Shown piece after piece: positions 5,226 to 25,420 of a stretch of 25,420 nt of DNA; positions within the stretch are counted from its first letter, which is position 1; every line of letters begins with the position of its first letter. The translations under genes were made by a program, and so were the position numbers. Location: positions 1-25,420 of the forward strand of contig JBEPXV010000001.1 of the NCBI GenBank assembly GCA_041641695.1. Direction: 5' to 3'. Origin of the DNA: Gammaproteobacteria bacterium. Lineage in GTDB: Bacteria; Pseudomonadota; Gammaproteobacteria; Arenicellales; JAANXG01. Below the pieces are notes generated by a model. It was not told the origin of the DNA and did not search any database. It saw nothing but the letters and a program-made list of their open reading frames with translations.

Positions 5226-6062
5226 TCAGTGCGACATCAGCACCGGCACCGTCATGGATTCCAGGATCTCGCGCGTGGCGCCGCCCAGCACCAGCTCCCG
5301 GTAGCGGGAGTGGCCGTAGGCGCCCATGACGATCAAGTCCGCCTGCTGGTCCGAGGCCCGCGACAGCAGCATTTCCCCCACCGAGATATCCTCGGACTCG
5401 ATGTGCGCCGCCTCGGCCTTGACCTGGTGGCGGGCGAGATGCAGGGAGATATCAGCGCCCGGCAGGTCACCGTCGCCGGCCGGCCCCTTGCGCGGATTGA
5501 TGGAAAGGACCCGCACGGACCTGGCCACTTCGAGCAGCGCCATGGCGTCGTGGACGGCGCGCATCGCCTCGCGGCTGGCGTCCCAGGCCACCAGCACGCG
5601 CTCGCCGAAGCTCTCGGGCGCGCCGATGTAGGGAATCAACAGCACCGGGCGGCCGACATCCAGAAGCACCTGCTCCACGACCCCCTGGCTCACCGACCAT
5701 TGATCGGACGGGTTCGCCTGGCCGAGTATCAGGAGATCCACGTACCGGGCATGAAGCGACAATGTCCGCGTGAGCCCGCCCTCGACGAGCCGCCACTCGG
5801 TCGTAACGCCGGCCCGGTCGGCCGCGTCCTTGAATGCCTTTTTCGCCTCCTCGGACTTCTCGAGCGCCACCCGCCGCTGCTCTTCGAGGATGTCCCCGGG
5901 AATATGGGCCTCGGTATAGGCCGGCATCACGGTCTGGTCCGGTGCGACGTAAAGTCCGGTCAAATGGGCATCATGGGCGGCCGCGAGCCGCAATGCGGCA
6001 TCCACGCGCCCGGCGTTGGCCTTGCTGCTATCGACGTGCACCAACAGGTCTTTCAGTGCCAT
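5226..6062 (-). CDS. Universal stress protein, tandem UspA domains (278 aa)
   Basis: Starts MALKDLLVHVD. Contains YVDLLILGQ, GRPVLLIP, RVLVAWDASREA, ADLIVMGAYGHSR and VPVLMSH. AAGGAG precedes the ATG at 6062. Confidence 0.95.
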   Translation of the reverse strand: MALKDLLVHVDSSKANAGRVDAALRLAAAHDAHLTGLYVAPDQTVMPAYTEAHIPGDILEEQRRVALEKSEEAKKAFKDAADRAGVTTEWRLVEGGLTRTLSLHARYVDLLILGQANPSDQWSVSQGVVEQVLLDVGRPVLLIPYIGAPESFGERVLVAWDASREAMRAVHDAMALLEVARSVRVLSINPRKGPAGDGDLPGADISLHLARHQVKAEAAHIESEDISVGEMLLSRASDQQADLIVMGAYGHSRYRELVLGGATREILESMTVPVLMSH

Positions 6063-6170
6063 GGGAGGGCTCTCCTTCTCTTCTGTGAGCGCGCTACGGG
6101 CGCGACGATTTGAATATGCTGCCGACCAGGCGGCAGTGTTTGATTGTCCCGGCCCGGACCCGCGCGGACA

Positions 6171-6184
6171 TTGATCTGGATCAA
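6171..6184. promoter_or_regulatory. FNR/Anr-type binding site (perfect) for the usp gene
   Basis: TTGATCTGGATCAA matches TTGAT-N4-ATCAA exactly. A -10-like GACAAT (minus strand, 6143-6148) places the box centre at -41.5. Confidence 0.85.
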
Positions 6185-6212
6185 TCATGCGCCCGGGGCC
6201 GGTGCCCGGGAG

Positions 6213-11287: not shown

Positions 11288-11301
11288 ATGATCTCGATCA
11301 A
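11288..11301. promoter_or_regulatory. FNR/Anr-type site upstream of the transporter-arcABC operon
   Basis: ATGATCTCGATCAA, one mismatch to consensus. A -10-like CATGCT at 11324-11329 gives -41.5 spacing. Confidence 0.7.
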
Positions 11302-11372
11302 CCCGGCGACTTGGCCGCTCATCCATGCTTCGGGCTCACATTTCCCGCCCCCGACCCCGAAGGAGCAACGCA

Positions 11373-13379
11373 GTGACCAATGATAAACGGACCACGGCTC
11401 GACCCGGCGCGACACACCCGCCGGCCTCCTCTCGCACCATCCTCACATTGGCCACCGGACTGCTGATTGCCGCGATCCTTGCCGTGATGCCGCGTTTCGC
11501 CACCGCGCAGGACGACCAGCCCTTCCAGCTCGACACTGGCGACCAAGTGGTCTCCGGCGTGGAGACTTCGGTCACCGTGCAGGGGCCGGAAGGCCTGATC
11601 ACCGAAGAAACGGCCGCCACGCTGCGGGTCGACGGCCGGGACTACCCGCTGACTCTGGGACCGGACGGCCGGGGCACCGTCGAGGGCGTGGTCTTCGGTG
11701 CGCTGGACAACGACGTGACGCTGCAAGTTGCCGGCCAGCCGGTGGCGGTGGACCCCGGGACCGGCACGGCCGTGCTGGACGCCTCCATCCCGGCGCTGCC
11801 CGGGTGGCTGTCGATACTGCCGCCCATCATCGCCATCCTGCTCGCGCTGCTCACCAAGCGCGTCATTCCCGCCCTCGTGATCGGCGTATGGGCCGGCGCC
11901 TGGTTCTCCAGTGAGCTCACCCTGGCGGGCATCTGGTACGGGCTGCTGGACGTCATCGACACCTGGGTCCTGCGGGCGCTGGTACCCGAGGACGGCGGCA
12001 CCGGTCACATGTCCATCATGCTGTTCACCATGCTCATCGGCGCCATGGTCGGAATCATCTACCGCAACGGCGGTACCCAGGCCATCGTCGACAAGCTGAC
12101 CGCCTGGGCCACCAACCGGCGGCGCGGCGAGGTCGCAGCCGGCGCCGTGGGCACGGCGATATTCTTCGACGACTATTCGAGCCTGCTGGTTCACGGCAAC
12201 GCCGTGCGGCCCATGACCGACCGCCTGAAGATCTCCCGGGAGAAGCTCGCCTATATCGTGGATACCAGCGCGGCCCCCATTGCGACCTGGGCGTTCATCA
12301 CTACCTGGATCGGATTCCAGGTCGGCCTGATCGCCGATGCTACGGCGGGTATCGCCGGAGTGGAGGGCAGCCCCTATGCGGTGTTTTTCTCCTCCATCCC
12401 CTACATGTTCTACCCGCTGCTGGCTTTCCTGTTCATGTGGCTGCTGATCGGCACCGGCCGCGACTGGGGGCCGATGGCGCGCGCCCAGGACCGCGCCCTG
12501 GGCGGCGACGTCGGCGGGACCACCGCCGAGCAGAGCGAACGGGCAGGTCTGGTCGAAAAGGAAGGCGTGCAACGCGGCGCGCTGAACGCCGTAGTTCCGA
12601 TCGTCGTGCTGCTCGCGGTCACCATCATCGGCCTGTTCGTTACCGGCTCCGGCGACACGCTGATGGATGTGATCGGCAGCGCCGACTCGTTCACCGCCCT
12701 GCTGTGGGGTTCGATGCTGGCGGTGATCGCCGCTGTGGTGATATCCGTGGGCCGCGGTCTGCTGTCCCTGGGCGAATCCGTGGAGAGCGGCATCGACGGC
12801 ATCAAAGCCGTGTTCGACGTGCTGGTGATCCTGACGCTGGCCTGGGCGCTGTCCGCGGTTACGGAAAATCTGCAGGCGGCAAACTGGCTGGCCTCCATGC
12901 TGGGCGAGGCGCTGCCCGCCGCCCTGATGCCGGCAATCCTGTTCGTGATCGCCGCGGCCATCGCCTTCGCCACCGGTACCAGCTGGGGCACCATGGGAAT
13001 CCTGCTGCCGCTGGCCGTGCCGCTCACCTGGACGATCATGGGCAACCAGGGCCTGGCCGGCGCCGATTACTTTTATATCCTTTACGGCGCCGTGGGCGCG
13101 ACGCTCGCCGGCGCGGTATGGGGCGACCACACCTCACCCATCTCCGACACCACCGTGCTGGCCTCGGCGACCTCCCATTGCGGCGTGGTCGAGCACGCCA
13201 ACACGCAGTTGCCGTACGGCCTGCTGGTCGGAGCGGTAGCGCTGGTGCTCGGCTACCTGCCGGCGGGCTTCGGGCTGCCGGCCTGGCTGTCGCTGGTCAT
13301 CGGCCTGGTCGCGCTGATCGTGATCGTGCTGTTCGTGTTCCGGGTTCCCGAATCGTCCACCACGAAAAATCAATCATGA
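11373..13379 (+). CDS. NhaC-family transporter with N-terminal extracytoplasmic domain; putative arginine/ornithine exchanger
   Basis: Motifs [80 protein letters not shown] start follows AAGGAG. Its stop overlaps the arcA start (ATGA). Confidence 0.85.
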
Positions 13380-14611
13380 ACACCGACACCAATGACAACG
13401 GCCTCGGAGTCTGGTCCGAGGTCGGGAAACTCAAACGGGTACTGGTGCATCGCCCCGACCTGAGCCTGCGCCGGCTCACACCCGGAAACTGCCACGACCT
13501 GTTGTTCGACGACGTGCTGTGGGTCAAGCGGGCGCGCCAGGAGCACGACGTCTTTGTCGATGTGCTGCGCGATCGCGGCGTCGAGGTGCTGCAGCTTCGC
13601 GAGCTGCTCGCCGAGACCCTGGAGATCCCCGAGGCCCGGGACTGGCTGCTCGACCGCGTCGTCTCGCCGCTGCGCTCGGGTGTGACCATGCTGGCGGAGA
13701 TGCGGGCCTGGCTCGAGGAGATATCCACCCATGACCTGTCGAAGCACCTGATCGGCGGCCTGGCCAAGGCGGAGAGTCCGTTCGCCGGAGACGGGCTGAC
13801 CGGGCAGTTCATGGATCGCCACGAGTTCATCCTGCCGCCGCTGCCCAATCACCTGTTCACGCGGGATACTTCCTGCTGGATCTACCAGGGGGTTTCGATC
13901 AACCCCATGGCCATGCACGCCCGCAAGCGCGAAACACTCAACTACCAGGCCATATACCGCTTCCATCCGATGTTTACGGGCGGCGGTTATGAAGTCTGGT
14001 TCGGCAGCGAAGAGCAGGACTATGCCGATGCCACCATCGAGGGCGGCGACGTGATGCCCATCGGCAACGGCGCCGTCCTGGTGGGCATGGGGGAGCGCAC
14101 CACGCCCCAGGCCGTGGAGTGCCTGGCGCAGTCACTGTTCCGCGGCGGCGGCGCCGAACGCGTGATCGCCGCGGCATTTCCCCGCGCCCGCTCCGCCATG
14201 CACCTGGACACAGTGTTCACCATGCTCGACCGCGACAAGGTGACCTGCTTCCCGGAAGCGGTGGAGACGTTCCGCACCTGGAGCCTGCGACCGGGCGACG
14301 GTGATGGCGGCATCGAATTGTCCACGGAGAAGGGTTTCATGGAGGCGGTCTCCGACGCCCTCGGCACGACCCTGACTACCATTCCCACCGGCGGTGACAG
14401 CTACGAAGCCGAGCGCGAGCAATGGGACGACGGCAACAACACCCTGGCCGTGGAGCCCGGCGTGGTGATCGGCTATGACCGGAATGTCTACACCAATACC
14501 CAGCTCCGCAAGGCGGGCGTGGAAGTGATTACCATCCCCGGCTACGAACTGTCCCGCGGCCGGGGCGGCGCCCACTGTATGAGCTGCCCGATCCAGCGCG
14601 ACGGCATCTGA
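13376..14611 (+). CDS. arcA: Arginine deiminase
   Basis: 411 aa from ATG 13376: [68 protein letters not shown] (catalytic Cys). Confidence 0.97.
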
Positions 14612-14629: not shown

Positions 14630-15622
14630 ATGCTACGCAACCGAAGCTTTCTCAAGCTCAGCGATTTCTTCCCGGAGGAGATCGAGTATCTGATCAACTT
14701 TGCATCTGAGCTCAAGGAGGAAAAGCGCGCCGGTACCGAGCGCCAGCGACTGAACGGAAAGAATATTGCCTTGATATTCGAGAAGGACTCCACCCGGACC
14801 CGCTGCGCCTTCGAGGTCGCCGTGCACGACCAGGGCGCCCACGTTACCTATATCGGCCCCAGCGGGTCGCACATCGGCGTCAAGGAAACTGTGAAGGACA
14901 CGGCGCGCGTCCTCGGCCGCATGTACGACGGCATCGAGTACCGGGGCTTCGGCCAGGCGATTGTCGAGGAGCTTGCCACCCACGCGGGCGTGCCGGTGTG
15001 GAACGGCCTGACGGACGAATTTCACCCGACCCAGATCCTGGCGGACTTCCTGACCATGCGCGAGCACTGCGACAAGCCGCTTCACGACATCTCGTTCTGT
15101 TTCCTCGGCGACTCGCACAACAATATCGCCGATTCGCTGATGGTGGGCGCCGCCAAGCTGGGCATGGATTTCCGCATGGGATCCCCGGCCGCTTCCCACC
15201 CCCGGGGCGACGTCCTGACCTATGCGACGGAGCTGGCGGGGGACCGCGGCGGCTCGATCACCCTGACCCAGGACATCGACGCGGCGGTGGAGGGCGTGGA
15301 CTTCATTTACACCGATGTGTGGGTATCCATGGGCGAGCCGGACTCGGTGTGGAACGAGCGCGTGGCGATGCTGCGCCCTTACCAGGTGAATATGGACGTG
15401 CTGGACCGCAGCAGGAATCCCGAAGTGAAGTTCATGCACTGCCTGCCGGCTTTCCATAACCGGGAGACGGAAAAGGGGGAGAAGATTTTCGAGAAATACG
15501 GCCTGGACGGCATGGAGGTCACCGAGGACGTGTTCGAGTCGAGCCACTCCATCGTGTTCGACCAGGCCGAGAACCGGCTGCATACCATCAAGGCCGTGAT
15601 CGTGGCCACGCTGGGAGACTGA
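14630..15622 (+). CDS. arcB: Ornithine carbamoyltransferase, catabolic
   Basis: [59 protein letters not shown]; lies between arcA and arcC. Confidence 0.96.
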
Positions 15623-15626
15623 CGCC

Positions 15627-16529
15627 GTGCGGGTGGTGGTGGCCCTCGGGGGCAACGCGCTGCTCAGGCGCGGCGAGCCCCTGGAAGCGGATGTCCAGCG
15701 CCGCAATATCAAACGCGCCGTGGACGCCCTGGCACCCGTCGCGGCGGAGCACGAGCTTGCCATCACCCACGGCAACGGCCCCCAGGTCGGGCTGCTGGCG
15801 CTGGAGTCCTACGCCTACCGGGAAGTCGGGGAGTATCCGCTGGACGTGCTCGGCGCCGAAAGCGAGGGCATGATCGGCTACATGATCGAGCAGGAGCTCG
15901 CCGGCCGCCTGCCGGGGCGCGAAACCGCCGTGCTGCTGACCCAGGTCGCCGTCGATCCGGAGGACCCCGCGTTTCGGAATCCGACCAAGCCGATCGGGCC
16001 CTGGTACGACAAGGGCGACGCCGAGCGTCTGGGCAGCGAGCGGGGCTGGTCCTTCGTCGCCACGGGCGGCCAGTACCGGCGGGTGGTCCCCTCTCCCCTG
16101 CCCCGGCGCATTCTCGAGATCGGGACCATACGCCTGCTGATCGACGCCGGCGTCATCGTCATCTCGGTGGGCGGCGGCGGTATCCCGGTCATCGTTTCCG
16201 ACGACGGCGTGATCCGCGGTGTCGAGGGGGTCATCGACAAGGACCGCGCCGCCGCGCTCCTGGCCAGCGAGATCGGCGCCGACGCCCTGCTGCTGCTCAC
16301 CGACGTCGACGGGGTGTACGCCGGCTGGGGAACCGAAGAGCAGCGCCGGCTGGGAGAGACCACGCCGGAAGAGCTCGGTGCCCTGGACCTGGAAGCGGGC
16401 TCCATGGGCCCCAAGGTGGAGGCCGCCTGCACCTTCGCCCGGCATACCGGCGGTCTCGCCGGCATCGGGGCGCTGGAAGACGCCGGCGCGATCCTGGCGG
16501 GCGAAGCGGGCACTCGCATCCGGCGCTGA
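15627..16529 (+). CDS. arcC: Carbamate kinase
   Basis: VVALGGNAL, THGNGPQVG, NPTKPIGP, YRRVVPSPLP, GGGGIPV, GVIDKD, LTDVDGVY, GSMGPKVEAA. Confidence 0.96.
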   Translation: MRVVVALGGNALLRRGEPLEADVQRRNIKRAVDALAPVAAEHELAITHGNGPQVGLLALESYAYREVGEYPLDVLGAESEGMIGYMIEQELAGRLPGRETAVLLTQVAVDPEDPAFRNPTKPIGPWYDKGDAERLGSERGWSFVATGGQYRRVVPSPLPRRILEIGTIRLLIDAGVIVISVGGGGIPVIVSDDGVIRGVEGVIDKDRAAALLASEIGADALLLLTDVDGVYAGWGTEEQRRLGETTPEELGALDLEAGSMGPKVEAACTFARHTGGLAGIGALEDAGAILAGEAGTRIRR

Positions 16530-16579: not shown

Positions 16580-16593
16580 TTGACCTGGGTTAA
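16580..16593. promoter_or_regulatory. FNR-like site upstream of dodecin
   Basis: TTGACCTGGGTTAA is a TTGAC-N4-GTCAA variant with one change. An extended -10-like TGnTACGCT at 16612-16620 gives about -40.5 spacing. Confidence 0.5.
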
Positions 16594-16684
16594 CTCGCCG
16601 TTCGAAACGGCTGTTACGCTGACACCCGTTTTACAAGACATCAGCCAGCCAACCAATACGCCTGATCAGGCGGGGAGGACTTCA

Positions 16685-16885
16685 ATGTCCGTAGCAAAAG
16701 TGATCGAGATAACCGCCAACTCCACCGAGAGCTTTGAGGACGCCATCGAACAGGGCATCAAGTCCGCCGCCCGGAGCGTTCACAACATCAAGGGAGCATG
16801 GGTCAAGGAACAGCAGGTCGTCGTCGACGGCGACCAGGTCTCCGAGTACCGCGTCGACCTGAAAGTCACCTTCGTTCTCGACTGA
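16685..16885 (+). CDS. Dodecin family flavin-binding protein (66 aa)
   Basis: MSVAKVIEITANSTESFEDAIEQGI...YRVDLKVTFVLD is the typical dodecin pattern. GGAGG RBS. Confidence 0.92.
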   Translation: MSVAKVIEITANSTESFEDAIEQGIKSAARSVHNIKGAWVKEQQVVVDGDQVSEYRVDLKVTFVLD

Positions 16886-16967: not shown

Positions 16968-17342
16968 CTACTCGATGGTCTCTCCGGGAGGCACCGGCGG
17001 CTCGTGGGTCTTGACCTTGCCCCGCCGCCGCTGCTCGTACTCCTTCAATTGGCGGCGGGCGCTGTTGAACGCGTCGCGGATCGCGACGTAAACATCTTCG
17101 TGGGCGTGGTTCTCGGCCGGGCTCCGGCTTGCCACGATTTCAGTGTCGGGCACGTGGAGCTCGATGAGAACGCTGTAGATCTTGCCCTTGTGGTGGTGCT
17201 TGTGGGGCGCGTCGATGGTCACGTGGCAGGCCGTGACCTGGTCGCTGAACTGCTCCAGCTTGTCGACCTTTTCCCGCACGGCTTTCTCCACGGCCGTGGA
17301 AGGATCCATATTGTGATAGGTAAGCTGTAAGGATACCGCCAT
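16968..17342 (-). CDS. HPF/RaiA family ribosome-associated (hibernation) protein
   Basis: [60 protein letters not shown]. Confidence 0.9.
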
Positions 17343-17404: not shown

Positions 17405-17418
17405 TTGATCCGTGTCAA
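17405..17418. promoter_or_regulatory. FNR/Anr-type site for the hpf gene
   Basis: TTGATCCGTGTCAA, one mismatch. A -10-like CACAAT (minus strand, 17377-17382) puts the centre at -41.5 for hpf. Confidence 0.78.
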
Positions 17419-17509: not shown

Positions 17510-19066
17510 ATGACCGACAGGAACACAGCTACCGGCCGACTGAAGCTGCGCCACGTGGCCGTGGACACCTACCACGAGAACGTGGCCTACATGCACCGGG
17601 ACTGTGAGAATTACCGCGCGGAGGGATTTCAGGCGCTGTCCAAGATCAAGATCAGCTCCGATGGTCACGCCATACTGGCCATGTTGAACGTAGTGCGCGA
17701 CGACTCCCTGGTCTCGCCGGACGAACTGGGCCTGTGCGACCAGGCCTTCGAGCAGCTCGACCTCGAGGAGGGAACGAACCTGACCGTCGAGCACGCCGAG
17801 CAGCCCCGGTCCATGAGCTGCGTGCGCCGCAAGATCGAGGGGGAGCGCCTGAACAGAGCGGACTTCCAGGCCATTACCCGGGACATCGTCGACAACCAAT
17901 ACACCAAGATGGAGATGGCGGCATTCCTTGTCGCCGCCGACCAGGGCGGGCTCGACCGCGACGAGGTTCTCTACTACACCGAGGCCATGGCCGACACGGG
18001 TCGCCGGCTGGACTGGCACGAGTCCCTGGTGGCGGACAAGCATTGTATCGGCGGGATACCCGGCAACCGAACGTCCATGCTGGTGGTGCCCATCGTGGCG
18101 GCCCACGGCATGCTCATTCCCAAGACCTCCAGCCGCGCCATCACCTCGCCCGCCGGCACCGCCGACACCATGGAGGTGCTGGCAAAAGTCGACCTGTCGC
18201 CGGCCGATCTGCACCGGATCGTGCGCAGCGAGCGGGGCTGCCTGGCCTGGGGAGGAACCGCGCAACTGGCCCCGGTGGACGACATTCTCATCGCCGTTGA
18301 GCGGCCGCTGGGTATCGACGCCATGGGACAGATGGTGGCGTCGATCCTGGCCAAGAAGCTGGCGGCCGGCTCAACCCATCTCCTGGTGGACATTCCCGTC
18401 GGGCCGACCGCCAAAATCCGCAGCGAGCGCAGCGCCATGCAGCTTCGCAAGCTGTTCGAGTACGTCGGCGACCGCTGCGGCATCCACCTCGAGGTCATGA
18501 TCAGCGACGGCAGCCAGCCCGTGGGGCGCGGTATCGGGCCCGTTCTCGAAGCCCGCGACGTTATGCAGATCCTGCGCAACGACCCGGCGGGGCCGGAGGA
18601 CCTGCGCCTCAAGGCCTTGTACCTGGCCGGCCGCGTGCTGGAGTTCGATCCCGATGTGCGCGGCGGCCGGGGCTTCGCTATAGCCCGGGACATCCTGGAA
18701 TCGGGGCGGGCACTGACCCGGATGGAGGCTCTTATCGAGGCGCAGGGCGTACAATCCCGGCCGCCGGAGCTGGGCACGCTCATCCACGAGGTGACCGCCC
18801 GGCGCGAGGGGGTGATCGGGGCGATCGACAATTACCGCCTCAACCGGATCGCCAGCCTGGCGGGCGCGCCCATGGACAAGGGTGCCGGCGTGGACCTGTT
18901 GAAGAAAATCGGGGACCCGGTCGCCGCGGGCGAGCCCATGTACCGGCTGCACGCCCAATTCCAGGCCAACTTCAAGTTCGCGCGGAACATGATAGAAAAG
19001 GACACTGGGTTCACGATCGGCGACGACGACAACATCGAATCGGAAATTTCAAATGCCCGGAAGTAA
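17510..19066 (+). CDS. AMP phosphorylase / archaeal-type thymidine phosphorylase family protein
   Basis: 518 aa from ATG 17510, with the extra N-terminal domain ([17 protein letters not shown]...ALSKIKI) of the AMP-phosphorylase type. Also [71 protein letters not shown]. Confidence 0.9.
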
Positions 19067-19934
19067 GCGCTTGCTGGTCCTCGGTTTCCCGGAATACGTG
19101 GAACAGGCGAACCGCCTGGCCGGCGCCCTGGACAGCGCCTGCAAGATTATCGACATTCACCGTTTCCCTGACGGCGAAAGCCGGGTACGGCTGCCGGAGG
19201 AAGTACCGGCCCACGTGGTGCTGTGCCGCAGCCTGAACCAGCCCAACGACAAGCTTGTGGAGCTGATGCTCGCCGCCCGCACGGCGCGGGAACTGGGCGC
19301 CCGGGTCCTGACCCTGGCGGCGCCGTACCTGTGCTACATGCGCCAGGATGCCGCCTTCGCCGGCGGCGAGGCCGTCAGCCAGACCATCGTCGGGGAATGG
19401 CTGGGCAGCCTGTTCGATCGCGTCGTCACCGTGGACCCGCATCTGCACCGGACCGGCACCCTGGACGAGGTGGTGCCCGGCGCCGAGGCCGTCACGGTGA
19501 GCGCCGCGCCGGCTATGAGCGAGTACCTGAAGCACCTGCCCGACGCGCCGCTGCTCATCGGCCCCGACGATGAGGCCCGCCAGTGGGTGCAGCAGATCGC
19601 CGAGCTGTCGAACGTGGAATTCGCGGTGGCCACCAAGCAGCGCAGCGGCGACCGCGACGTGGAGGTGACCCTTTCCGACCACGACTGCGGAAACCGGAAC
19701 GTGGTGCTGGTGGACGACATCATCAGCACCGGCGAGACCATGGCCGCCGCCGTGCGCCACGCCCGGGCGGACGGCGCCGCGGCGATCCATTGCCTCGTCA
19801 CCCACGCCCTGTTCTGCGAAAGCGCGCTCGAGCTCCTTGAATCGGCGGGCGCGACCGGCATCGTCAGCACCGACAGCATCGAGCATCCTTCCAACAGGAT
19901 CCATCTGGCCCCGCTCATCGCAGAGGCCATATGA
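19053..19934 (+). CDS. Ribose-phosphate pyrophosphokinase, short archaeal-like type
   Basis: [50 protein letters not shown]. 293 aa; overlaps the upstream gene by 14 nt. Confidence 0.88.
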
Positions 19935-21319
19935 AGCTACAGTTCCTGGGCGCCACCCGCGAAGTCACCGGCTCATGCTACCTGCTCAGCCTCGGCAACA
20001 CGAAGATTCTCATCGAGTGTGGCCTGATCCAGGGCAGCGGCGAGCACGAACGCCATAACCATGACGCGTTCCGTTTCGATTCGAAGGAGGTCGACGCGGT
20101 AGTGGTCACCCACGCGCATATCGATCACTCGGGCCGGCTGCCGCTGCTGGTCAAACGGGGCTACCAGGGGCCCATCTACACCCACCGGGCGACGGTGGAC
20201 CTGTGCGAGGTGATGCTGGCGGACTCGGCATACCTCCAGGAGAAGGAAGCCGAGTGGCAGAACAGGGACCACGGCGGATCCGGGCGGGAACGCGTCGAGC
20301 CCCTGTACACCCGCGACGACGCAGCCCGGACCCAGGGGAGCTTCAGGGCGCTCGAGTACGGAAGCCCGCAGGAGATCGCCGACGGCGTGCGGGTCACGAT
20401 GCACGATGCCGGGCACATACTGGGCTCGGCGATCGCCGAGCTCGAGGTCACGGAGAACGGACGCACGCGCCGGATCGTATTCAGCGGCGACCTGGGCCAC
20501 CGCGGCGCGCCCATTCTGCGGGACCCGGCAATACTCTCCCGCGCGGACCTGGTTGTGATGGAGAGCACCTACGGCGACCGGCTGCACCGGTCGTGGCAGG
20601 ACACCTGGCTGGAGATGGGCGAAATCATTTCGAACGCCCGCAGCGAAAGAGGCAACATCCTCATCCCCGCGTTCACCGTGGGCCGCACCCAGGAGCTGCT
20701 ATACGTGTTCAACCAGAACTCCGAGAAGTGGGGCCTCGGCGACTGGCGCATCTTCCTCGACAGCCCGATGGGTATTGCGGCCACAGGCATATACGAGCGG
20801 CACGCCAAGGTTTACGACCGCCGCGCCGCCGAGTTCAACACCAGGCACCACGGGCTGTTCGACCTGCCCAACCTGTACATGAGCGAGACGCCCAAGGAGT
20901 CCATGGTGATCAACCAGATCCGGTCAGGAGCGATCGTCATCGCCGGCAGCGGCATGTGCACCGGCGGCCGTATCAAGCACCATCTCAAGCACAACATCTG
21001 GCGCGAGGCGTGCCACGTGATGATCGTGGGCTTCCAGGCCCGGGGCACCCCCGGCCGCGCCCTGGTGGACGGCGCGAGCCGCATCCGGCTGTGGGGCAAG
21101 GACTTCGACGTGGCGGCGAAGATTCACACTATCGGCGGCCTGTCGGCCCACGCCGACCAGCGCGGCCTGCTCGACTGGTACGCCGGCTTCGACGACAAGC
21201 CACCCGTCTGCCTGGTGCACGGCGAGCCCGAGTCCATGGACGCCCTGGCCGACAAGCTCACCAAAGACTACGACGCGAAGGTGACCCGGCCCGAATACGG
21301 GCAGGTCGTAAACCTGTAA
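19931..21319 (+). CDS. MBL-fold beta-CASP hydrolase (RNA-processing exonuclease family)
   Basis: FLGATREVTGSC, THAHIDHSG (HxHxDH), DAGHILGSA, FSGDLG, MESTYGDR, PAFTVGRTQE, AGSGMCTGGR, GLSAHAD, LVHGE. ATGA overlap with the prs-like gene. Confidence 0.93.
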   Translation: MKLQFLGATREVTGSCYLLSLGNTKILIECGLIQGSGEHERHNHDAFRFDSKEVDAVVVTHAHIDHSGRLPLLVKRGYQGPIYTHRATVDLCEVMLADSAYLQEKEAEWQNRDHGGSGRERVEPLYTRDDAARTQGSFRALEYGSPQEIADGVRVTMHDAGHILGSAIAELEVTENGRTRRIVFSGDLGHRGAPILRDPAILSRADLVVMESTYGDRLHRSWQDTWLEMGEIISNARSERGNILIPAFTVGRTQELLYVFNQNSEKWGLGDWRIFLDSPMGIAATGIYERHAKVYDRRAAEFNTRHHGLFDLPNLYMSETPKESMVINQIRSGAIVIAGSGMCTGGRIKHHLKHNIWREACHVMIVGFQARGTPGRALVDGASRIRLWGKDFDVAAKIHTIGGLSAHADQRGLLDWYAGFDDKPPVCLVHGEPESMDALADKLTKDYDAKVTRPEYGQVVNL

Positions 21320-21418: not shown

Positions 21419-21944
21419 CTAATCGGACTTTCGCAACTCGGTAGGTTGGGCGGCCGTAAGTGCTTGGTTTTCCAAGGGCGAGGAGGCAAAGGTCTGTACT
21501 ACATTTGCGCGGCTAGATTTGCAGCGGTGATCTTCGGCGGGCCTGGGGCGGCAGTGTCCAGCCGAGCTTGGCGAGCAATAGCTGCTGGTCGCTCTCCACA
21601 AAGACGTAGAGCTCATCCTCCTGCGGCAAAAGCTTCCCCTTGACCTCGGGGCGCGCGTGTTCCCACAATCGGGTGGCCAGCTCGCCTTCCAGCCGGCTCG
21701 AGTGTCCCTTCGGGGTCCCGACCAGGTAATGGGCGCCGCGCCGTCGCATCTCGGCTAGATGTGCTTCGGTCGGAATCCCCCGGTCGATCACCCAAACACG
21801 TTCGCCACAGCCATAGCGCGCTTCGATCCACTCGAGAAATTCCGGCAACGTAGTGCAATCCGCCGTGTTGCCGGCCAGCACTTCGAACCCCGCCCCGAAC
21901 AACTCCTGCCAGCGTTGCTTCAAAAATCCGAACAACGCCTCCTT
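21419..21944 (-). mobile_element. IS1634-like transposase remnant (internally deleted C-terminal part) with probable right end
   Basis: Frame reads KEALFGFLKQRWQELFGA, GNTADCTTL, RVWVIDRGIPTE, YLVGTPKG, KLLPQEDELYV, LLLAKLGWTLPPQ. These are IS1634-type segments joined with long gaps. The sequence ctaatcggactttcgcaactc at 21419 resembles ends I recall for this group. Confidence 0.78.
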
Positions 21945-22020
21945 CGTTTGCGACGTTTCCAGCTTCGTCCGGCCAGGCGCCGGAACAGGCTGAATTTATC
22001 ACAATACGCCAGACGAGCTT

Positions 22021-22034
22021 GTGATATGCGTCAA
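22021..22034. promoter_or_regulatory. Weak FNR/CRP-like site upstream of the cytochrome c gene
   Basis: GTGATATGCGTCAA, two mismatches. It overlaps an 8-bp inverted repeat TATCACAA (21997-22004) / TTGTGATA (22019-22026). No convincing -10 at -41.5 spacing. Confidence 0.3.
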
Positions 22035-22141
22035 TAAGTAGCGCGAATTGTCCCGCCCATACGGAATCAAAATCAGTAACGGAGCTGGTATATGAAACGA
22101 TCTCCGAGCACGCAGTGAATGGCGGTAGCCGGGAGGCGATC

Positions 22142-23200
22142 ATGCCGAAGCCAGCAACACGGCAGATTTCAATGCTGGGGTTCAGTTGCGTCGTTGCCGG
22201 GCTGTTAATTGTCCCGCAGGTGGCCGACACCCAGGTCCGCGATCAAAGCGGTAAGGAAATTGTCGACACGTTCTGCGCCGAGTGCCACCGGACAGGGGAT
22301 AATGACGCCCCGAAGATCGGCGATGCGGAGGCGTGGAAGGCGCGTGCATCGTTGGGACTGACGGCGCTCACGCAACATGCCTTGGATGGTATCCGCCGGA
22401 TGCCCCCGCATGGCGGCCACCCGCAGCTTACCGACCTGGAGATCGCGCGTGCAATCACCTACATGGTCAACGCATCGGGTGGCGACTGGGTGGCGCCTGA
22501 GAGCCGAGCTGACATAACCGCGGAGCTTGCCGGCAAGGAGGTCGTCGAGGCGTATTGTAGCGATTGCCACCAGAGCGGGCATGAAGGCGCTCCCCGGGTT
22601 GGTGACAAAGAGGCATGGATACCCCGGCTCCAACAGGGGCTTGCCTACGTTGTGCGCTCCGCGATCAAGGGTCACGGCGGCATGCCGCCGCGCGGGGGTG
22701 CTGCCAATCTTACCGATGCCGAAATACGGAACGCGATCGTTTACATGTTTGATCCGGAAACGGCCACCGCGAGCCAAAGGGCCTGGCGCCCGGAAGAAAA
22801 ACAAACCGGACCGGTTGAGGGCAATCACGCGAATGTCGGGGGAATGCACATATATCTTGGCTTCGTGTCCGCGGAAAAGCTCCGCGGCTATCCGACGGGA
22901 TCACCCGAACGATCCATGCACAGAGGGATCCCGAGTGGTGCTGACTGGTATCACGTCAACGTGACCCTGCTCGAGCAGGCGGATCATGCCCCGATCACCG
23001 ATGCCCGGGTGGAGGTGCAGGTCGATGAAGCGGGCGCGGTGATGAAATCCAAGGATCTCGAGTCAATGGCGGTCGGACAGGGAAGCTATGGAAATTACTT
23101 CCGGTTGCGGGCCAGGACATCGTACGGCGTTACCGTCCGGGTGCACGCTCCCGGTTCACCGGGTCCCGTCGAAGCCGAGTTCCGGCACGAACACCTGTGA
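22142..23200 (+). CDS. Periplasmic di-heme cytochrome c5-like protein with extra C-terminal beta-rich domain
   Basis: Signal peptide, CAECH and CSDCH heme motifs, c5-type APKIGD..AW / APRVGD..AW, and Met-ligand motifs MPPHGG and MPPRGG. About 125 further residues follow. GGGAGG precedes ATG 22142. Confidence 0.88.
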   Translation: MPKPATRQISMLGFSCVVAGLLIVPQVADTQVRDQSGKEIVDTFCAECHRTGDNDAPKIGDAEAWKARASLGLTALTQHALDGIRRMPPHGGHPQLTDLEIARAITYMVNASGGDWVAPESRADITAELAGKEVVEAYCSDCHQSGHEGAPRVGDKEAWIPRLQQGLAYVVRSAIKGHGGMPPRGGAANLTDAEIRNAIVYMFDPETATASQRAWRPEEKQTGPVEGNHANVGGMHIYLGFVSAEKLRGYPTGSPERSMHRGIPSGADWYHVNVTLLEQADHAPITDARVEVQVDEAGAVMKSKDLESMAVGQGSYGNYFRLRARTSYGVTVRVHAPGSPGPVEAEFRHEHL

Positions 23201-23297
23201 GGCCCACCGTGCCTGAAGATCGTTCCATGACCTCGAGCTACCCTTTACCAGCTGACTAATACCAATTTTATACAGACACGTGACGGAGGCCGTCATC

Positions 23298-23492
23298 ATG
23301 ACAACCGTTTACTGGATTACTACTGCAGCGCTTCTGCTTGTCATCGCCTCACTGGTCAGCGGTGCAATCTCCATGGGCCACGGCGGTGAATTCGACCGGA
23401 AACACGCTACGGAATTCATGTTTCTCCGCGTGGGCTTGCAGGCACTGGCGATCGCGTTGGTGATGCTGCTGGCGTACATGAACTACGTGTGA
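23298..23492 (+). CDS. HIG1-domain twin-transmembrane small protein
   Basis: Two TM helices flanking SMGHGGEFDRKHATEFMFLRVGLQ (HIG_1_N pattern). GGAGG RBS. Confidence 0.85.
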   Translation: MTTVYWITTAALLLVIASLVSGAISMGHGGEFDRKHATEFMFLRVGLQALAIALVMLLAYMNYV

Positions 23493-23645
23493 CCGGTATC
23501 GTTGTTACGAAGCCGGACGAATCTCCGGACTCCCGAATTCGAGACCCCTTGTTCGCCTTGGAGTCAACCAAGCGTCTCAGCCGCTCCGCTTCAAAGTGGC
23601 GACCAACCGCGGATTGGCTAATGTGGCTGTTCTGTCAGTAATCAT

Positions 23646-23819
23646 CTCGCCAATCCTATCCAGACAGCGGTACAGGGTGTCATTGGCAATGACCACACAA
23701 CCCTTGTCCAACAAGTCCGCCATCGCGCTGCGCCCATACTACTGCCGGTGCAGCCGCCAGTCGCTTCCCGGTTCCAGTAGCTGATACGCCGTCACCACCA
23801 TCAGCACGAGATACCACAA
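23646..23819 (-). pseudogene. IS1634-like transposase fragment (middle region) with in-frame stop
   Basis: Manual translation of the minus strand gives LWYLVLMVVTAYQLLEPGSDWRLHRQ*YGRSAMADLLDKGCVVIANDTLYRCLDRIGE. This matches the PGSEWRLHRxW...SAMADLL...LYRCLD block of these transposases. Confidence 0.8.
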
Positions 23820-23829
23820 GGTGCCTTAG

Positions 23830-23916
23830 GCCCAAGACTCGATACGGGTGGGTGGCCAGCCCTTACCGGACGGGAACTCACACCCCGCAAGATACGCCGA
23901 GCTTTCCTCACCACGA
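23830..23916 (-). mobile_element. Probable 5' fragment (domain I start) of a group IIC / IIC-attC intron
   Basis: The minus strand reads GTTA-TCGTGGTGAGGAAAGCTCGGCGTATCTTGCGGGGTGTGAGTTCCCGTCCGGTAAGGGCTGGCCACCCACCCGTATCGAGTCTTGGGCC. This resembles my recollection of class C intron 5' ends (AAGCTTGGCG..TTGCAGGGTGAAAGTCCCTG..GGTAAGG..CCACCCGTATCGAGTCTTG). No RT ORF or domain V follows. Confidence 0.55.
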
Positions 23917-23925
23917 TAACGACTG

Positions 23926-23985
23926 AACAAACTGCAAATATTTCAGTGGAATATTTTCCCCACTGAAATATCTGTCAGGTTGTTT
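23926..23985. terminator. Extended hairpin downstream of glsB (terminator-like or degenerate attC-like)
   Basis: 12-bp perfect inverted repeat ATATTTCAGTGG (23938-23949) / CCACTGAAATAT (23960-23971), extended by an 8/9 match AACAAACTG / CAGGTTGTT. Confidence 0.55.
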
Positions 23986-24006
23986 TGCTTGATAACCGCT
24001 ATTGCG

Positions 24007-24258
24007 TTAAGCCCTCTTAACCAGGCTTATTACAAACAACAAAATAACGGCGCCGATAGTGGCCATAATTATGGAGCCTAATAACCCGCCTGTTGTTATG
24101 CCGAGCAAGCCGAATACAAAGCCACCCACTACGGCACCCACAACCCCCACGATAATATTCCCTAAGAGACCAAACCCGCTTCCCTTCATTAAGTTGCCAG
24201 CAAGCCACCCGACCAGCGCGCCAATAGCCAGAAATATTATTAAGCTGATGATATCCAT
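24007..24258 (-). CDS. GlsB/YeaQ/YmgE family stress-response membrane protein
   Basis: 83 aa, Gly-rich with three TMs: IGALVGWLAGNLMKGSGFGLLGNIIVGVVGAVVGG...ATIGAVILLFVISLVKR. GGAGG RBS. Confidence 0.93.
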   Translation of the reverse strand: MDIISLIIFLAIGALVGWLAGNLMKGSGFGLLGNIIVGVVGAVVGGFVFGLLGITTGGLLGSIIMATIGAVILLFVISLVKRA

Positions 24259-24269
24259 GTTGCCTCCGG

Positions 24270-24395
24270 TTAACTGTTAGAGAAAAGGACTATGCCCATA
24301 ACAAAACTGACAGCACCAGCAATGTAGAAAGTCATCATCCTATCCGTATCCGAACCTGTAACAGCCTGTATTATCTGCAAACCGACTGAACCAGG
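24270..24395 (-). pseudogene. 5'-truncated DUF3185-like small membrane protein gene
   Basis: Manual translation PGSVGLQIIQAVTGSDTDRMMTFYIAGAVSFVMGIVLFSNS* resembles the C-terminal half of DUF3185 (SVGSQ...TGSPTDK..W..IGG). There is an in-frame stop just upstream, at the IS110 junction. Confidence 0.5.
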
Positions 24396-24397
24396 TC

Positions 24398-24478
24398 AGC
24401 ACCAACGATACCACTGTCTACGTCGGATTGGATGTGCACAAGGACACCATCACCGCCGCCTGCTTCGGCGCCGAACCC
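24398..24478 (+). mobile_element. IS110-family transposase N-terminal fragment
   Basis: Frame reads STNDTTVYVGLDVHKDTITAACFGAEP, the YVGLDVHK DEDD-domain start of IS110 transposases. There is no start codon and the similarity stops after about 27 codons. Confidence 0.7.
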
Positions 24479-24509: not shown

Positions 24510-25420
24510 TCAACCCTGCCGCATCTCCACGACCCTCAAACGCATCTGCTTCTCGGACTCTATCAGCGCGAAAAGCACCAGGCCGATACCGACAATCACC
24601 AGGCCGTCGGTGAAGGATACCGCCTGCGTGCCCAGCACGCGTTGCAGGAACGGGATGTAGGTGACGGCGAACTGGGCCGTCGTGGCAATGCCCACCGCGA
24701 TCCATACCGCGGGCGTGCCCGCCACCGCCTTCCAGGTGAGCGACGTGCCGTAGGCGTTGCGCATGAAGAACAGGTAGAAGATCTCCATGACCACCAGCGT
24801 GTTGACCGCCAGGGTGCGCGCCAGCTCGAGGGAATATCCTTGCTGCAGGCCATAGGTGAATATGCCGAACATTCCGCACAGGAACAGCGTCGACACGAAC
24901 ACCACCTGCCACACCAGGCCGCCCGTCAGCAGCGGCTCGCTGCGCGGCCGCGGCGGGCGGCGCATGGTGTTCTCCTCGGTGGGCTCGAAGGCCAGGGCGA
25001 TGCCCAGGGTGACGGCGGTAATGAGGTTCACCCAGAGGATCTGCACGGGGGTGACCGGCAGGCTGAGGCCGAACAGGACCGCCACGATGATGGTCATGGC
25101 CTCGCCGGCATTGGTCGGCAGGGTCCAACCGATGACTTTCTTGAGGTTGTCGTAAACGGTCCGGCCGTAGCGGACCGCCGCGGCGATGGAGGCGAAGTTG
25201 TCGTCGGCGAGCACCAGCTCAGCCGATTCCTTGGCGGCCTCGCTGCCGCTTTTTCCCATGGCGATGCCCGCGTCGGCGCGCTTGAGGGCCGGCGCGTCGT
25301 TGACCCCGTCGCCGGTCATGGCCACCACCAGGCCCTGGGCCTGCAGAGCCGCCACCAGCCTGAGCTTGTGGGACGGGCTGGTCCTGGCGAAGATGTCCGT
25401 CTCGACGATCGCCGCGGCCA
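24510..25420 (-). CDS. Cation-transporting P-type ATPase (type II, Ca2+/CtpF-like), 3' part only; continues beyond the window
   Basis: FARTSPSHKLRLV, MTGDGVNDAPALKRADAGIAMG, VLADDNFASI, GRTVYDNLKK, QILWVNLIT, ALAFEPTE, and C-terminal TM helices. Confidence 0.93.
   Translation of the reverse strand, partial: AAAIVETDIFARTSPSHKLRLVAALQAQGLVVAMTGDGVNDAPALKRADAGIAMGKSGSEAAKESAELVLADDNFASIAAAVRYGRTVYDNLKKVIGWTLPTNAGEAMTIIVAVLFGLSLPVTPVQILWVNLITAVTLGIALAFEPTEENTMRRPPRPRSEPLLTGGLVWQVVFVSTLFLCGMFGIFTYGLQQGYSLELARTLAVNTLVVMEIFYLFFMRNAYGTSLTWKAVAGTPAVWIAVGIATTAQFAVTYIPFLQRVLGTQAVSFTDGLVIVGIGLVLFALIESEKQMRLRVVEMRQG

Follow-up and report, generated by a model that had tools for sequence, protein, structure and literature searches.

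A candidate oxygen-regulated nucleotide-recycling operon with an archaeal-type phosphorylase and a Prs-like protein in a gammaproteobacterium

The operon and its three products

The window analysed here is a stretch of 25,420 nucleotides (nt) at the start of contig JBEPXV010000001.1 (assembly GCA_041641695.1), and our subject is a group of three overlapping genes within it, which encode an archaeal-type nucleotide phosphorylase-like protein, a protein resembling phosphoribosyl pyrophosphate (PRPP) synthase (Prs), and a beta-CASP nuclease. The contig has a G+C content of 66% and belongs to a metagenome-assembled genome (MAG) of 2.52 Mb in 464 contigs that is 71% complete. The nearest named relatives of the window are Arenicellales and other Gammaproteobacteria. 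Among the sequencing runs searched, those holding the window sequence are DNA metagenomes only (hypersaline lake, saline soils and sediments), with no RNA runs found, and an Rfam search of the window gave no match. The three genes are:

17510..19066, plus strand: archaeal-type nucleotide phosphorylase-like gene (for adenosine or other nucleoside monophosphates, AMP/NMP), 518 amino acids, with an extra N-terminal domain
19053..19934, plus strand: Prs-like gene, a class III-like PRPP synthase paralogue of the NF005537/PRK07199 subfamily, 293 amino acids
19931..21319, plus strand: beta-CASP metallo-beta-lactamase (MBL) gene of the ribonuclease type, 462 amino acids

These genes form a real operon, as originally predicted: all three open reading frames lie on the same strand, the Prs-like gene starts at ATG 19053 in a 14-nt overlap with the end of the phosphorylase gene (stop codon TAA, 19064-19066), and the Prs-like and beta-CASP genes share an ATGA overlap at 19931-19934, both junctions being read directly. 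The triad recurs in the same order in two loci of the window's own lineage (L089 and L090, 84-86% identity) and in distant Pseudomonadota, and so goes beyond chance. A longer phosphorylase beginning at TTG 17348 was considered and rejected; the homologues are 511-521 amino acids long, which makes ATG 17510 the start.

The phosphorylase contains the Pfam domains Glycos_trans_3N, Glycos_transf_3 and PYNP_C, and passes the models NF003338 (691.8 bits; cut-off 434) and TIGR02645 (604.5 bits; cut-off 434.6). Its best match in the Protein Data Bank (PDB) is the AMP phosphorylase of T. kodakarensis (4GA5/4GA4; E 1.5e-104, about 45% identity over 430 residues), compared with E 1.9e-43 for the best pyrimidine nucleoside phosphorylase. 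The extra N-terminal domain is evident from the NF003338 match, which begins at model position 2 (canonical DeoA proteins match only from about position 94), and from the alignment to 4GA5, which begins at chain residue 48. The motifs PGN(K/R)T and SSRAITS(A/P)AGTAD are common to the window protein and the T. kodakarensis enzyme. Taken together, these features support assignment to the archaeal AMP-phosphorylase type, and the presumed reaction is the phosphorolysis of NMPs to a free base and ribose-1,5-bisphosphate (R15P), by analogy with the archaeal enzyme. The T. kodakarensis AMP phosphorylase accepts all NMPs (PMC8376864); its published AMP-binding residues, sought for the 5'-phosphate pocket, were not found in open papers.

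The second protein contains the domains Pribosyltran_N and Pribosyltran and passes NF005537 (368.5 bits; cut-off 322), a model annotated as ribose-phosphate diphosphokinase. Of the PDB structures, the class III PRPP synthase of M. jannaschii matches it best (1U9Y; E 2.1e-38); the two are similar in length and have all catalytic motifs in common. The Prs-like gene is the third copy of its kind in the genome, alongside a housekeeping prs, which scores 386 bits on TIGR01251, and one other prs paralogue. The subfamily has invariant HLHR and E..QWV motifs, and differs from the class III enzymes (1U9Y/1U9Z) in the loop after RQD, where class I and III Prs proteins have a dibasic pair: the genome's canonical prs and the 4TWB enzyme read RQDRR and the M. 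jannaschii enzyme RQDKK, whereas the window protein reads RQDAAF. Across 77 family sequences, the first position after RQD is K in 24, and the second is Ala in 68 and never K or R. In the Prs of M. smegmatis, the RQD loop belongs to the ATP site (PMC5395218).

The third protein has the Pfam domains Lactamase_B, Beta-Casp (123.8 bits) and RMMBL. Read in translation, its motifs HAHIDH, DAGH, SGDLG, MESTYG, SAHAD and LVHGE complete the series of MBL motifs 1-4 and beta-CASP motifs A-C, and the His in motif C is of the RNA type, so that by sequence it has every feature of an RNA-type beta-CASP nuclease. It scores below the equivalog cut-offs for Cas14 (389.9 vs 800) and aCPSF1 (275.6 vs 580.2).

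A conserved pair and the link to PhnN

We compared the operon with the 80 best related loci from species-representative genomes (64-72% identity; the close loci) and with an even draw of 300 Pseudomonadota genomes, each at least 90% complete. The Prs-like gene directly follows the phosphorylase gene in 77 of the 80 close loci. In the genome sample the phosphorylase occurs in 36 genomes (about one in eight; each of these carriers at least 92% complete), 32 of which also encode the Prs-like protein, and in 30 of them the two genes are neighbours in the window's order; a Prs-like gene without the phosphorylase was seen in one genome of the 300. There is also a natural Prs-like::phosphorylase fusion (P0139), whose Prs part shares 40% identity and the subfamily hallmarks with the window protein. 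The nuclease gene adjoins the pair in only 4 of the 80 close loci and in 12 of the 36 carriers (upstream in eight, downstream in four), and because the pair is so much more constant, the conserved core is a two-gene module of phosphorylase and Prs-like genes. The three-gene neighbourhood proposed originally is thus real and present in relatives, with the pair as its conserved unit and the nuclease as an optional member. The third gene after the pair varies by lineage; in the 77 gammaproteobacterial loci it encodes a DUF1614 membrane protein directly after the pair in 16 (e.g., L079, 10452-11105), an SDR protein in 13 and an HD-domain protein in 8. A complex prediction for the phosphorylase and the Prs-like protein (paired 35-row alignments) gave a score of 0.02, which counts neither for nor against an interaction.

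In archaea, R15P isomerase and form III RuBisCO are the sink for R15P. The original observation that the window contains neither extends to the rest of the 71%-complete genome, where a profile search for such a route, which bears on the idea of an orphan R15P, found neither enzyme. The isomerase model, which detects three archaeal controls, has no match in any of 301 sampled Pseudomonadota genomes, the 36 carriers included, so that incompleteness of the MAG does not account for this absence. In five good carrier genomes (two Methylobacter species, Methylococcus capsulatus, strain HdN1 and one closed MAG) no isomerase exceeds the cut-off, the matches being distant and MtnA-like, and RuBisCO is found in Methylococcus capsulatus only. 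PhnN, the ribose 1,5-bisphosphokinase of guanylate-kinase fold that forms PRPP from R15P, has no match over the cut-off in the window genome or in these five.

PhnN does occur in close association with related phosphorylases. An exhaustive search of 50%-identity representatives gave 730 homologues with an E value of 1e-30 or lower. Among the top 150 there are at least 16 PhnN::phosphorylase fusions, with an N-terminal domain scoring 164-212 bits on TIGR02322 (cut-off 156); one further representative fusion lies just below that cut-off, and at L111 a separate phnN gene overlaps the phosphorylase start. In a FastTree phylogeny of 127 sequences, with four ordinary thymidine phosphorylases as the root, the 9 rows of the window's clade form the sister group of the clade that contains all 17 PhnN fusions (joint support 99), and the Prs-like::phosphorylase fusion is placed in the next clade out. 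Six homologues left out of this tree (P0155, P0159, P0172, P0194, P0206 and P0221; 912-1017 amino acids) contain a LAGLIDADG intein within the catalytic domain. The fusion of an R15P-specific kinase to a phosphorylase makes sense only if the sister-clade phosphorylase releases R15P, and it thereby lends indirect support, by analogy, to the idea that R15P might also be converted to PRPP in the window's system.

The distribution of the two partners among the sampled genomes is consistent with this. All four carriers that lack the Prs-like gene have PhnN (one as a nadC-linked fusion), compared with 3 of the 32 carriers that have the Prs-like gene and 41 of the 264 non-carriers; these are small counts from lineages that are not independent. 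Such a complementary pattern suggests that the Prs-like protein and PhnN may be alternative partners with an equivalent job. The two systems would thus have a common logic of phosphorolysis followed by PRPP regeneration, with sister-clade phosphorylases, and they differ in the fold of the partner (guanylate kinase there, Prs here) and in their genomic setting. In all four PhnN-type loci that were examined (L097, L098, L103 and L111), nadC lies immediately upstream, and this implies that NadC has its own supply or recycling loop for PRPP; the linkage there is to nadC/quinolinate genes, and here to hpf, arc genes and the nuclease.

Oxygen control and a proposed route to PRPP

The operon shares a divergent promoter region with hpf, and this region contains a predicted binding site for an oxygen-responsive regulator. 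The relevant features, with two similar sites elsewhere in the window, are:

16968..17342, minus strand: hpf/yfiA-type ribosome hibernation factor gene (Ribosomal_S30AE; TIGR00741, 42 bits, cut-off 40.9)
17405..17418, no strand assigned: predicted FNR/Anr/FixK-type box TTGATCCGTGTCAA in the divergent hpf/operon promoter region
11288..11301, no strand assigned: second FNR-like box ATGATCTCGATCAA, one mismatch to TTGAT-N4-ATCAA, before the transporter gene that precedes arcABC
6171..6184, no strand assigned: third FNR-type box TTGATCTGGATCAA, an exact match, at the 5' end of a tandem Usp gene

The promoter box is centred some 98 nt upstream of ATG 17510 and some 70 nt upstream of the start of hpf. 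The pattern TTGA-N6-TCAA occurs twice in the window (17405-17418 and 6171-6184) against an expectation of 0.14, and boxes are found at the equivalent place before the triads of L089 (position 9882) and L090 (position 9934). The same genome encodes, on contig C203, a regulator resembling FNR that has a cluster of N-terminal cysteines and an E--SR recognition helix. The operon therefore has the sequence features of an FNR-regulon member, namely a promoter box, its conservation in L089 and L090, and a cognate regulator in the genome.

Expression data are available for one comparable system. The genes bll3117-bll3116-bll3115 of Bradyrhizobium diazoefficiens (an alphaproteobacterium) are described as encoding a thymidine phosphorylase family protein, a ribose-phosphate pyrophosphokinase and an MBL-fold hydrolase, which by published description are the same three families in the same order. 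They are induced 5-15-fold in microoxia at the RNA and protein level, and bll3117-bll3115 are among the core microoxia-induced proteins and transcripts of that organism (PMC6515984). They are predicted to be one operon, which has a FixK2 box at -74; in a fixK2 mutant bll3117 is down 6.6-fold and bll3115 down 30.6-fold (PMC9104804). A CRP/FNR-type box is thus common to both systems, the Bradyrhizobium genes being known from omics tables only. In the full-text literature searches, these two papers were the only ones found to mention the bacterial pair, with no mention in the Burkholderia lxa-locus paper. The gene set is already annotated, microoxia-induced in one organism and biochemically untouched, in keeping with what the original prediction had said of this neighbourhood.

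We propose that the operon recycles nucleotides under the control of oxygen, by a route from RNA through NMPs and R15P to PRPP in which the Prs-like protein stands in for PhnN, and we regard this reading as evenly balanced between right and wrong. As oxygen falls, an FNR/Anr-type regulator at 17405-17418 would switch on hpf and the three genes, in cells that would be shutting down translation through ribosome hibernation. The beta-CASP enzyme, an optional component, would degrade RNA to 5'-NMPs; the phosphorylase would split these with phosphate into free bases and R15P; and the Prs-like enzyme would convert R15P to PRPP, as PhnN would do for the sister clade. In this way the ribose phosphate of spent RNA would become available again for making nucleotides and NAD, bypassing the archaeal sink of isomerase and RuBisCO. 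We infer every enzymatic step of this model, and the chemistry of the Prs-like enzyme, above all its substrate, purely so. The step from R15P to PRPP is the weakest link, since the Prs-like protein has every appearance of a functional diphosphokinase of the ordinary kind. That NF005537 is a Prs-fold enzyme acting on R15P, either by phosphorylation to PRPP (a non-homologous replacement of PhnN) or by exchange of the 1-phosphate with AMP/ADP, is accordingly put forward tentatively, at somewhat under even probability.

The known systems closest to the operon are the pentose-bisphosphate and PhnN routes. With the archaeal AMP phosphorylase of the former (4GA4/4GA5/4GA6, TIGR03327), the window protein has in common the extra N-terminal domain, the motifs and the presumed reaction; it differs in being bacterial, in having a Prs-like gene as its partner with no R15P isomerase or type III RuBisCO, in its probable regulation by oxygen, and in its score on the archaeal equivalog model. 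The NF005537 enzyme differs from class III PRPP synthase, beyond the missing dibasic pair, in being an extra copy beside the housekeeping prs and in almost never being found without the phosphorylase. To our knowledge, R15P is known as an intermediate only in archaeal nucleotide catabolism and bacterial phosphonate breakdown, and yet about one in eight of the sampled Pseudomonadota have an archaeal-type NMP phosphorylase, no archaeal sink, and nearly always a private Prs-like enzyme. If the Prs-like enzyme does handle R15P, this would be a new enzymatic activity for a well-studied fold. The operon would then represent a bacterial branch of the pentose bisphosphate pathway that is regulated by oxygen and has not been described before. 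In parallel with ribosome hibernation, this branch would return the ribose of ribosomal RNA to PRPP when cells are starved of oxygen, and it would be relevant to how methanotrophs, nitrifiers, rhizobia and others persist or become dormant. The elements new here are the FNR-box/hpf/arc context, the placing of the PhnN-fusion clade as sister to the window's, the complementary distribution of the two partners and the hallmark of the subfamily in the ATP-site loop.

Several observations weigh against the proposed route. The phosphorylase falls below the cut-off of the AMP-phosphorylase equivalog TIGR03327 (491.5 bits vs 535), so that the original assignment stands as to type (nearest solved relative and N-terminal domain) and falls short as to the exact archaeal equivalog; the window protein also retains a thymidine phosphorylase (TP)-like Lys at a place where the T. 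kodakarensis enzyme has Val. In the 77-member alignment of the Prs-like family, the FPDGE flag, RQD, the catalytic His (DPH), K-x-R and the DD..STGxT ribose-5-phosphate loop are all kept, and ordinary chemistry on ribose-5-phosphate (R5P) and ATP is therefore the simpler biochemical expectation; transfer of one phosphate onto R15P would need a different geometry. The complementarity with PhnN comes from four genomes in three lineages, in one of which PhnN is common anyway, and the full-text literature searches yielded no assay of any member of the bacterial phosphorylase clade or of the Prs-like subfamily. Apart from being only sporadically adjacent to the pair, as described above, the window nuclease has its closest relatives (51% identity, with a range of 49-52%) in genomes without the pair (G282, G222, G048, G092 and G100), and it shares only 36-42% identity with the nucleases encoded beside the pair in other lineages, which suggests that nucleases may have been recruited to the two-gene module independently and more than once. 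Finally, an FNR-type box lies within 350 nt in only 5 of the 79 more distant loci; we rejected the box as a family-wide feature, and oxygen control appears to be specific to the lineage.

The main rival reading is one of canonical coupling. Here the Prs-like protein would be an unregulated class III-type synthase (R5P + ATP to PRPP + AMP), and the phosphorylase would remove the AMP by-product or trim the AMP pool at low energy charge, with unspecific enzymes dephosphorylating the R15P. In addition to the complete set of catalytic motifs, the match to the M. jannaschii PRPP synthase and the annotation of NF005537 agree with this, as does the rise of AMP under hypoxia. We nevertheless consider it unlikely, as it leaves R15P without a fate, the genome already has two other prs genes, and the PhnN fusions of the sister clade go unexplained, the by-product of PhnN being ADP and not AMP.

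A second variant holds that the Prs-like enzyme performs the Prs reaction minus one phosphate (ADP + R5P <-> AMP + R15P). Coupled to a reversible phosphorylase, this would provide low-cost base salvage independent of PRPP, and in reverse would conserve the energy of the glycosidic bond as ADP. The geometry would be that of the normal Prs reaction, and the variant would fit the lost basic residue in the loop after RQD, where the second position is never basic in the family; in M. smegmatis Prs this loop belongs to the ATP site (PMC5395218). Since it has been reached by inference only, its catabolic direction is thermodynamically poor by our own estimate, and PRPP is the product that the analogy with PhnN favours, we give this variant a small chance.

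The first gene might instead encode an ordinary thymidine or pyrimidine nucleoside phosphorylase, tied to PRPP synthesis for the recycling of bases. The public annotation of the protein is 'thymidine phosphorylase family protein', and the phosphate-site and base-site residues common to TP are conserved. This reading fits the data poorly, however, and is quite improbable: NF003338 scores in the genome sample are bimodal (585-712 bits for the phosphorylase family and at most 236 bits for genuine DeoA), with several genomes holding both kinds of gene; the window protein shares with the archaeal enzyme its N-terminal domain as well as the motifs PGN(K/R)T and SSRAITS; and the R15P-kinase fusions of the sister clade make sense only with a 5-phosphate on the product. 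A mobile defence or toxin module that depletes nucleotides, as might be thought from the insertion sequence (IS) fragment downstream of the operon and the family-level similarity of the beta-CASP protein to Cas14 and Avs1a models, also fits poorly and is barely credible, given that a PADLOC search yields only a 17-bit ShosT match on the phosphoribosyltransferase fold, that the neighbours are stable metabolic and stress genes common to L089 and L090, and that regulation is probably by oxygen.

The surrounding low-oxygen region

The operon lies in a wider low-oxygen setting. The remaining features of the window are:

12-1829: NrdJ, class II (adenosylcobalamin/B12-dependent) ribonucleotide reductase (TIGR02504, 584 bits)
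5226-6188, minus strand: tandem-domain Usp gene (Usp domains)
11325-13379: Na+/H+-antiporter-family transporter gene, upstream of arcABC
about 13385-14611: arcA, arginine deiminase pathway
14630-15622: arcB, arginine deiminase pathway
15627-16529: arcC, arginine deiminase pathway
16580-16885: dodecin (flavin-storage protein) gene, between arcC and hpf
21513-21935, minus strand: IS1634-family transposase fragment, downstream of the operon
22115-23200: dihaem cytochrome c gene
24510-25418, minus strand: P-type ATPase gene

The hpf, arc, NrdJ and Usp genes together with the operon make up a low-oxygen island, in which a class I aldolase and CorA are also encoded. The original description of the locus as one of hypoxia is borne out by the FNR-type boxes, the FNR-like regulator, arcABC with its transporter, NrdJ, Usp and the Bradyrhizobium data, and hpf does stand beside the operon, as had been noted. 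The dodecin reading frame has a 37-residue N-terminal extension past the Pfam domain, which makes its start codon uncertain.

L089 and L090 keep the full triad near an arc operon and a P-type ATPase gene, and L090 also has hpf as a neighbour. The arc operon of L089 and L090 has a DcuC-type transporter and is divergent from the triad, whereas that of the window is co-directional and upstream; the region has therefore been rearranged. The ATPase gene is about 1.0-1.6 kb from the operon in L089 and L090. In the window, the two are kept apart by the transposase fragment, the dihaem cytochrome c gene and a stretch of lower G+C content (56-57%, vs 65-68% elsewhere), and this segment (21513-24400) looks like an insertion.

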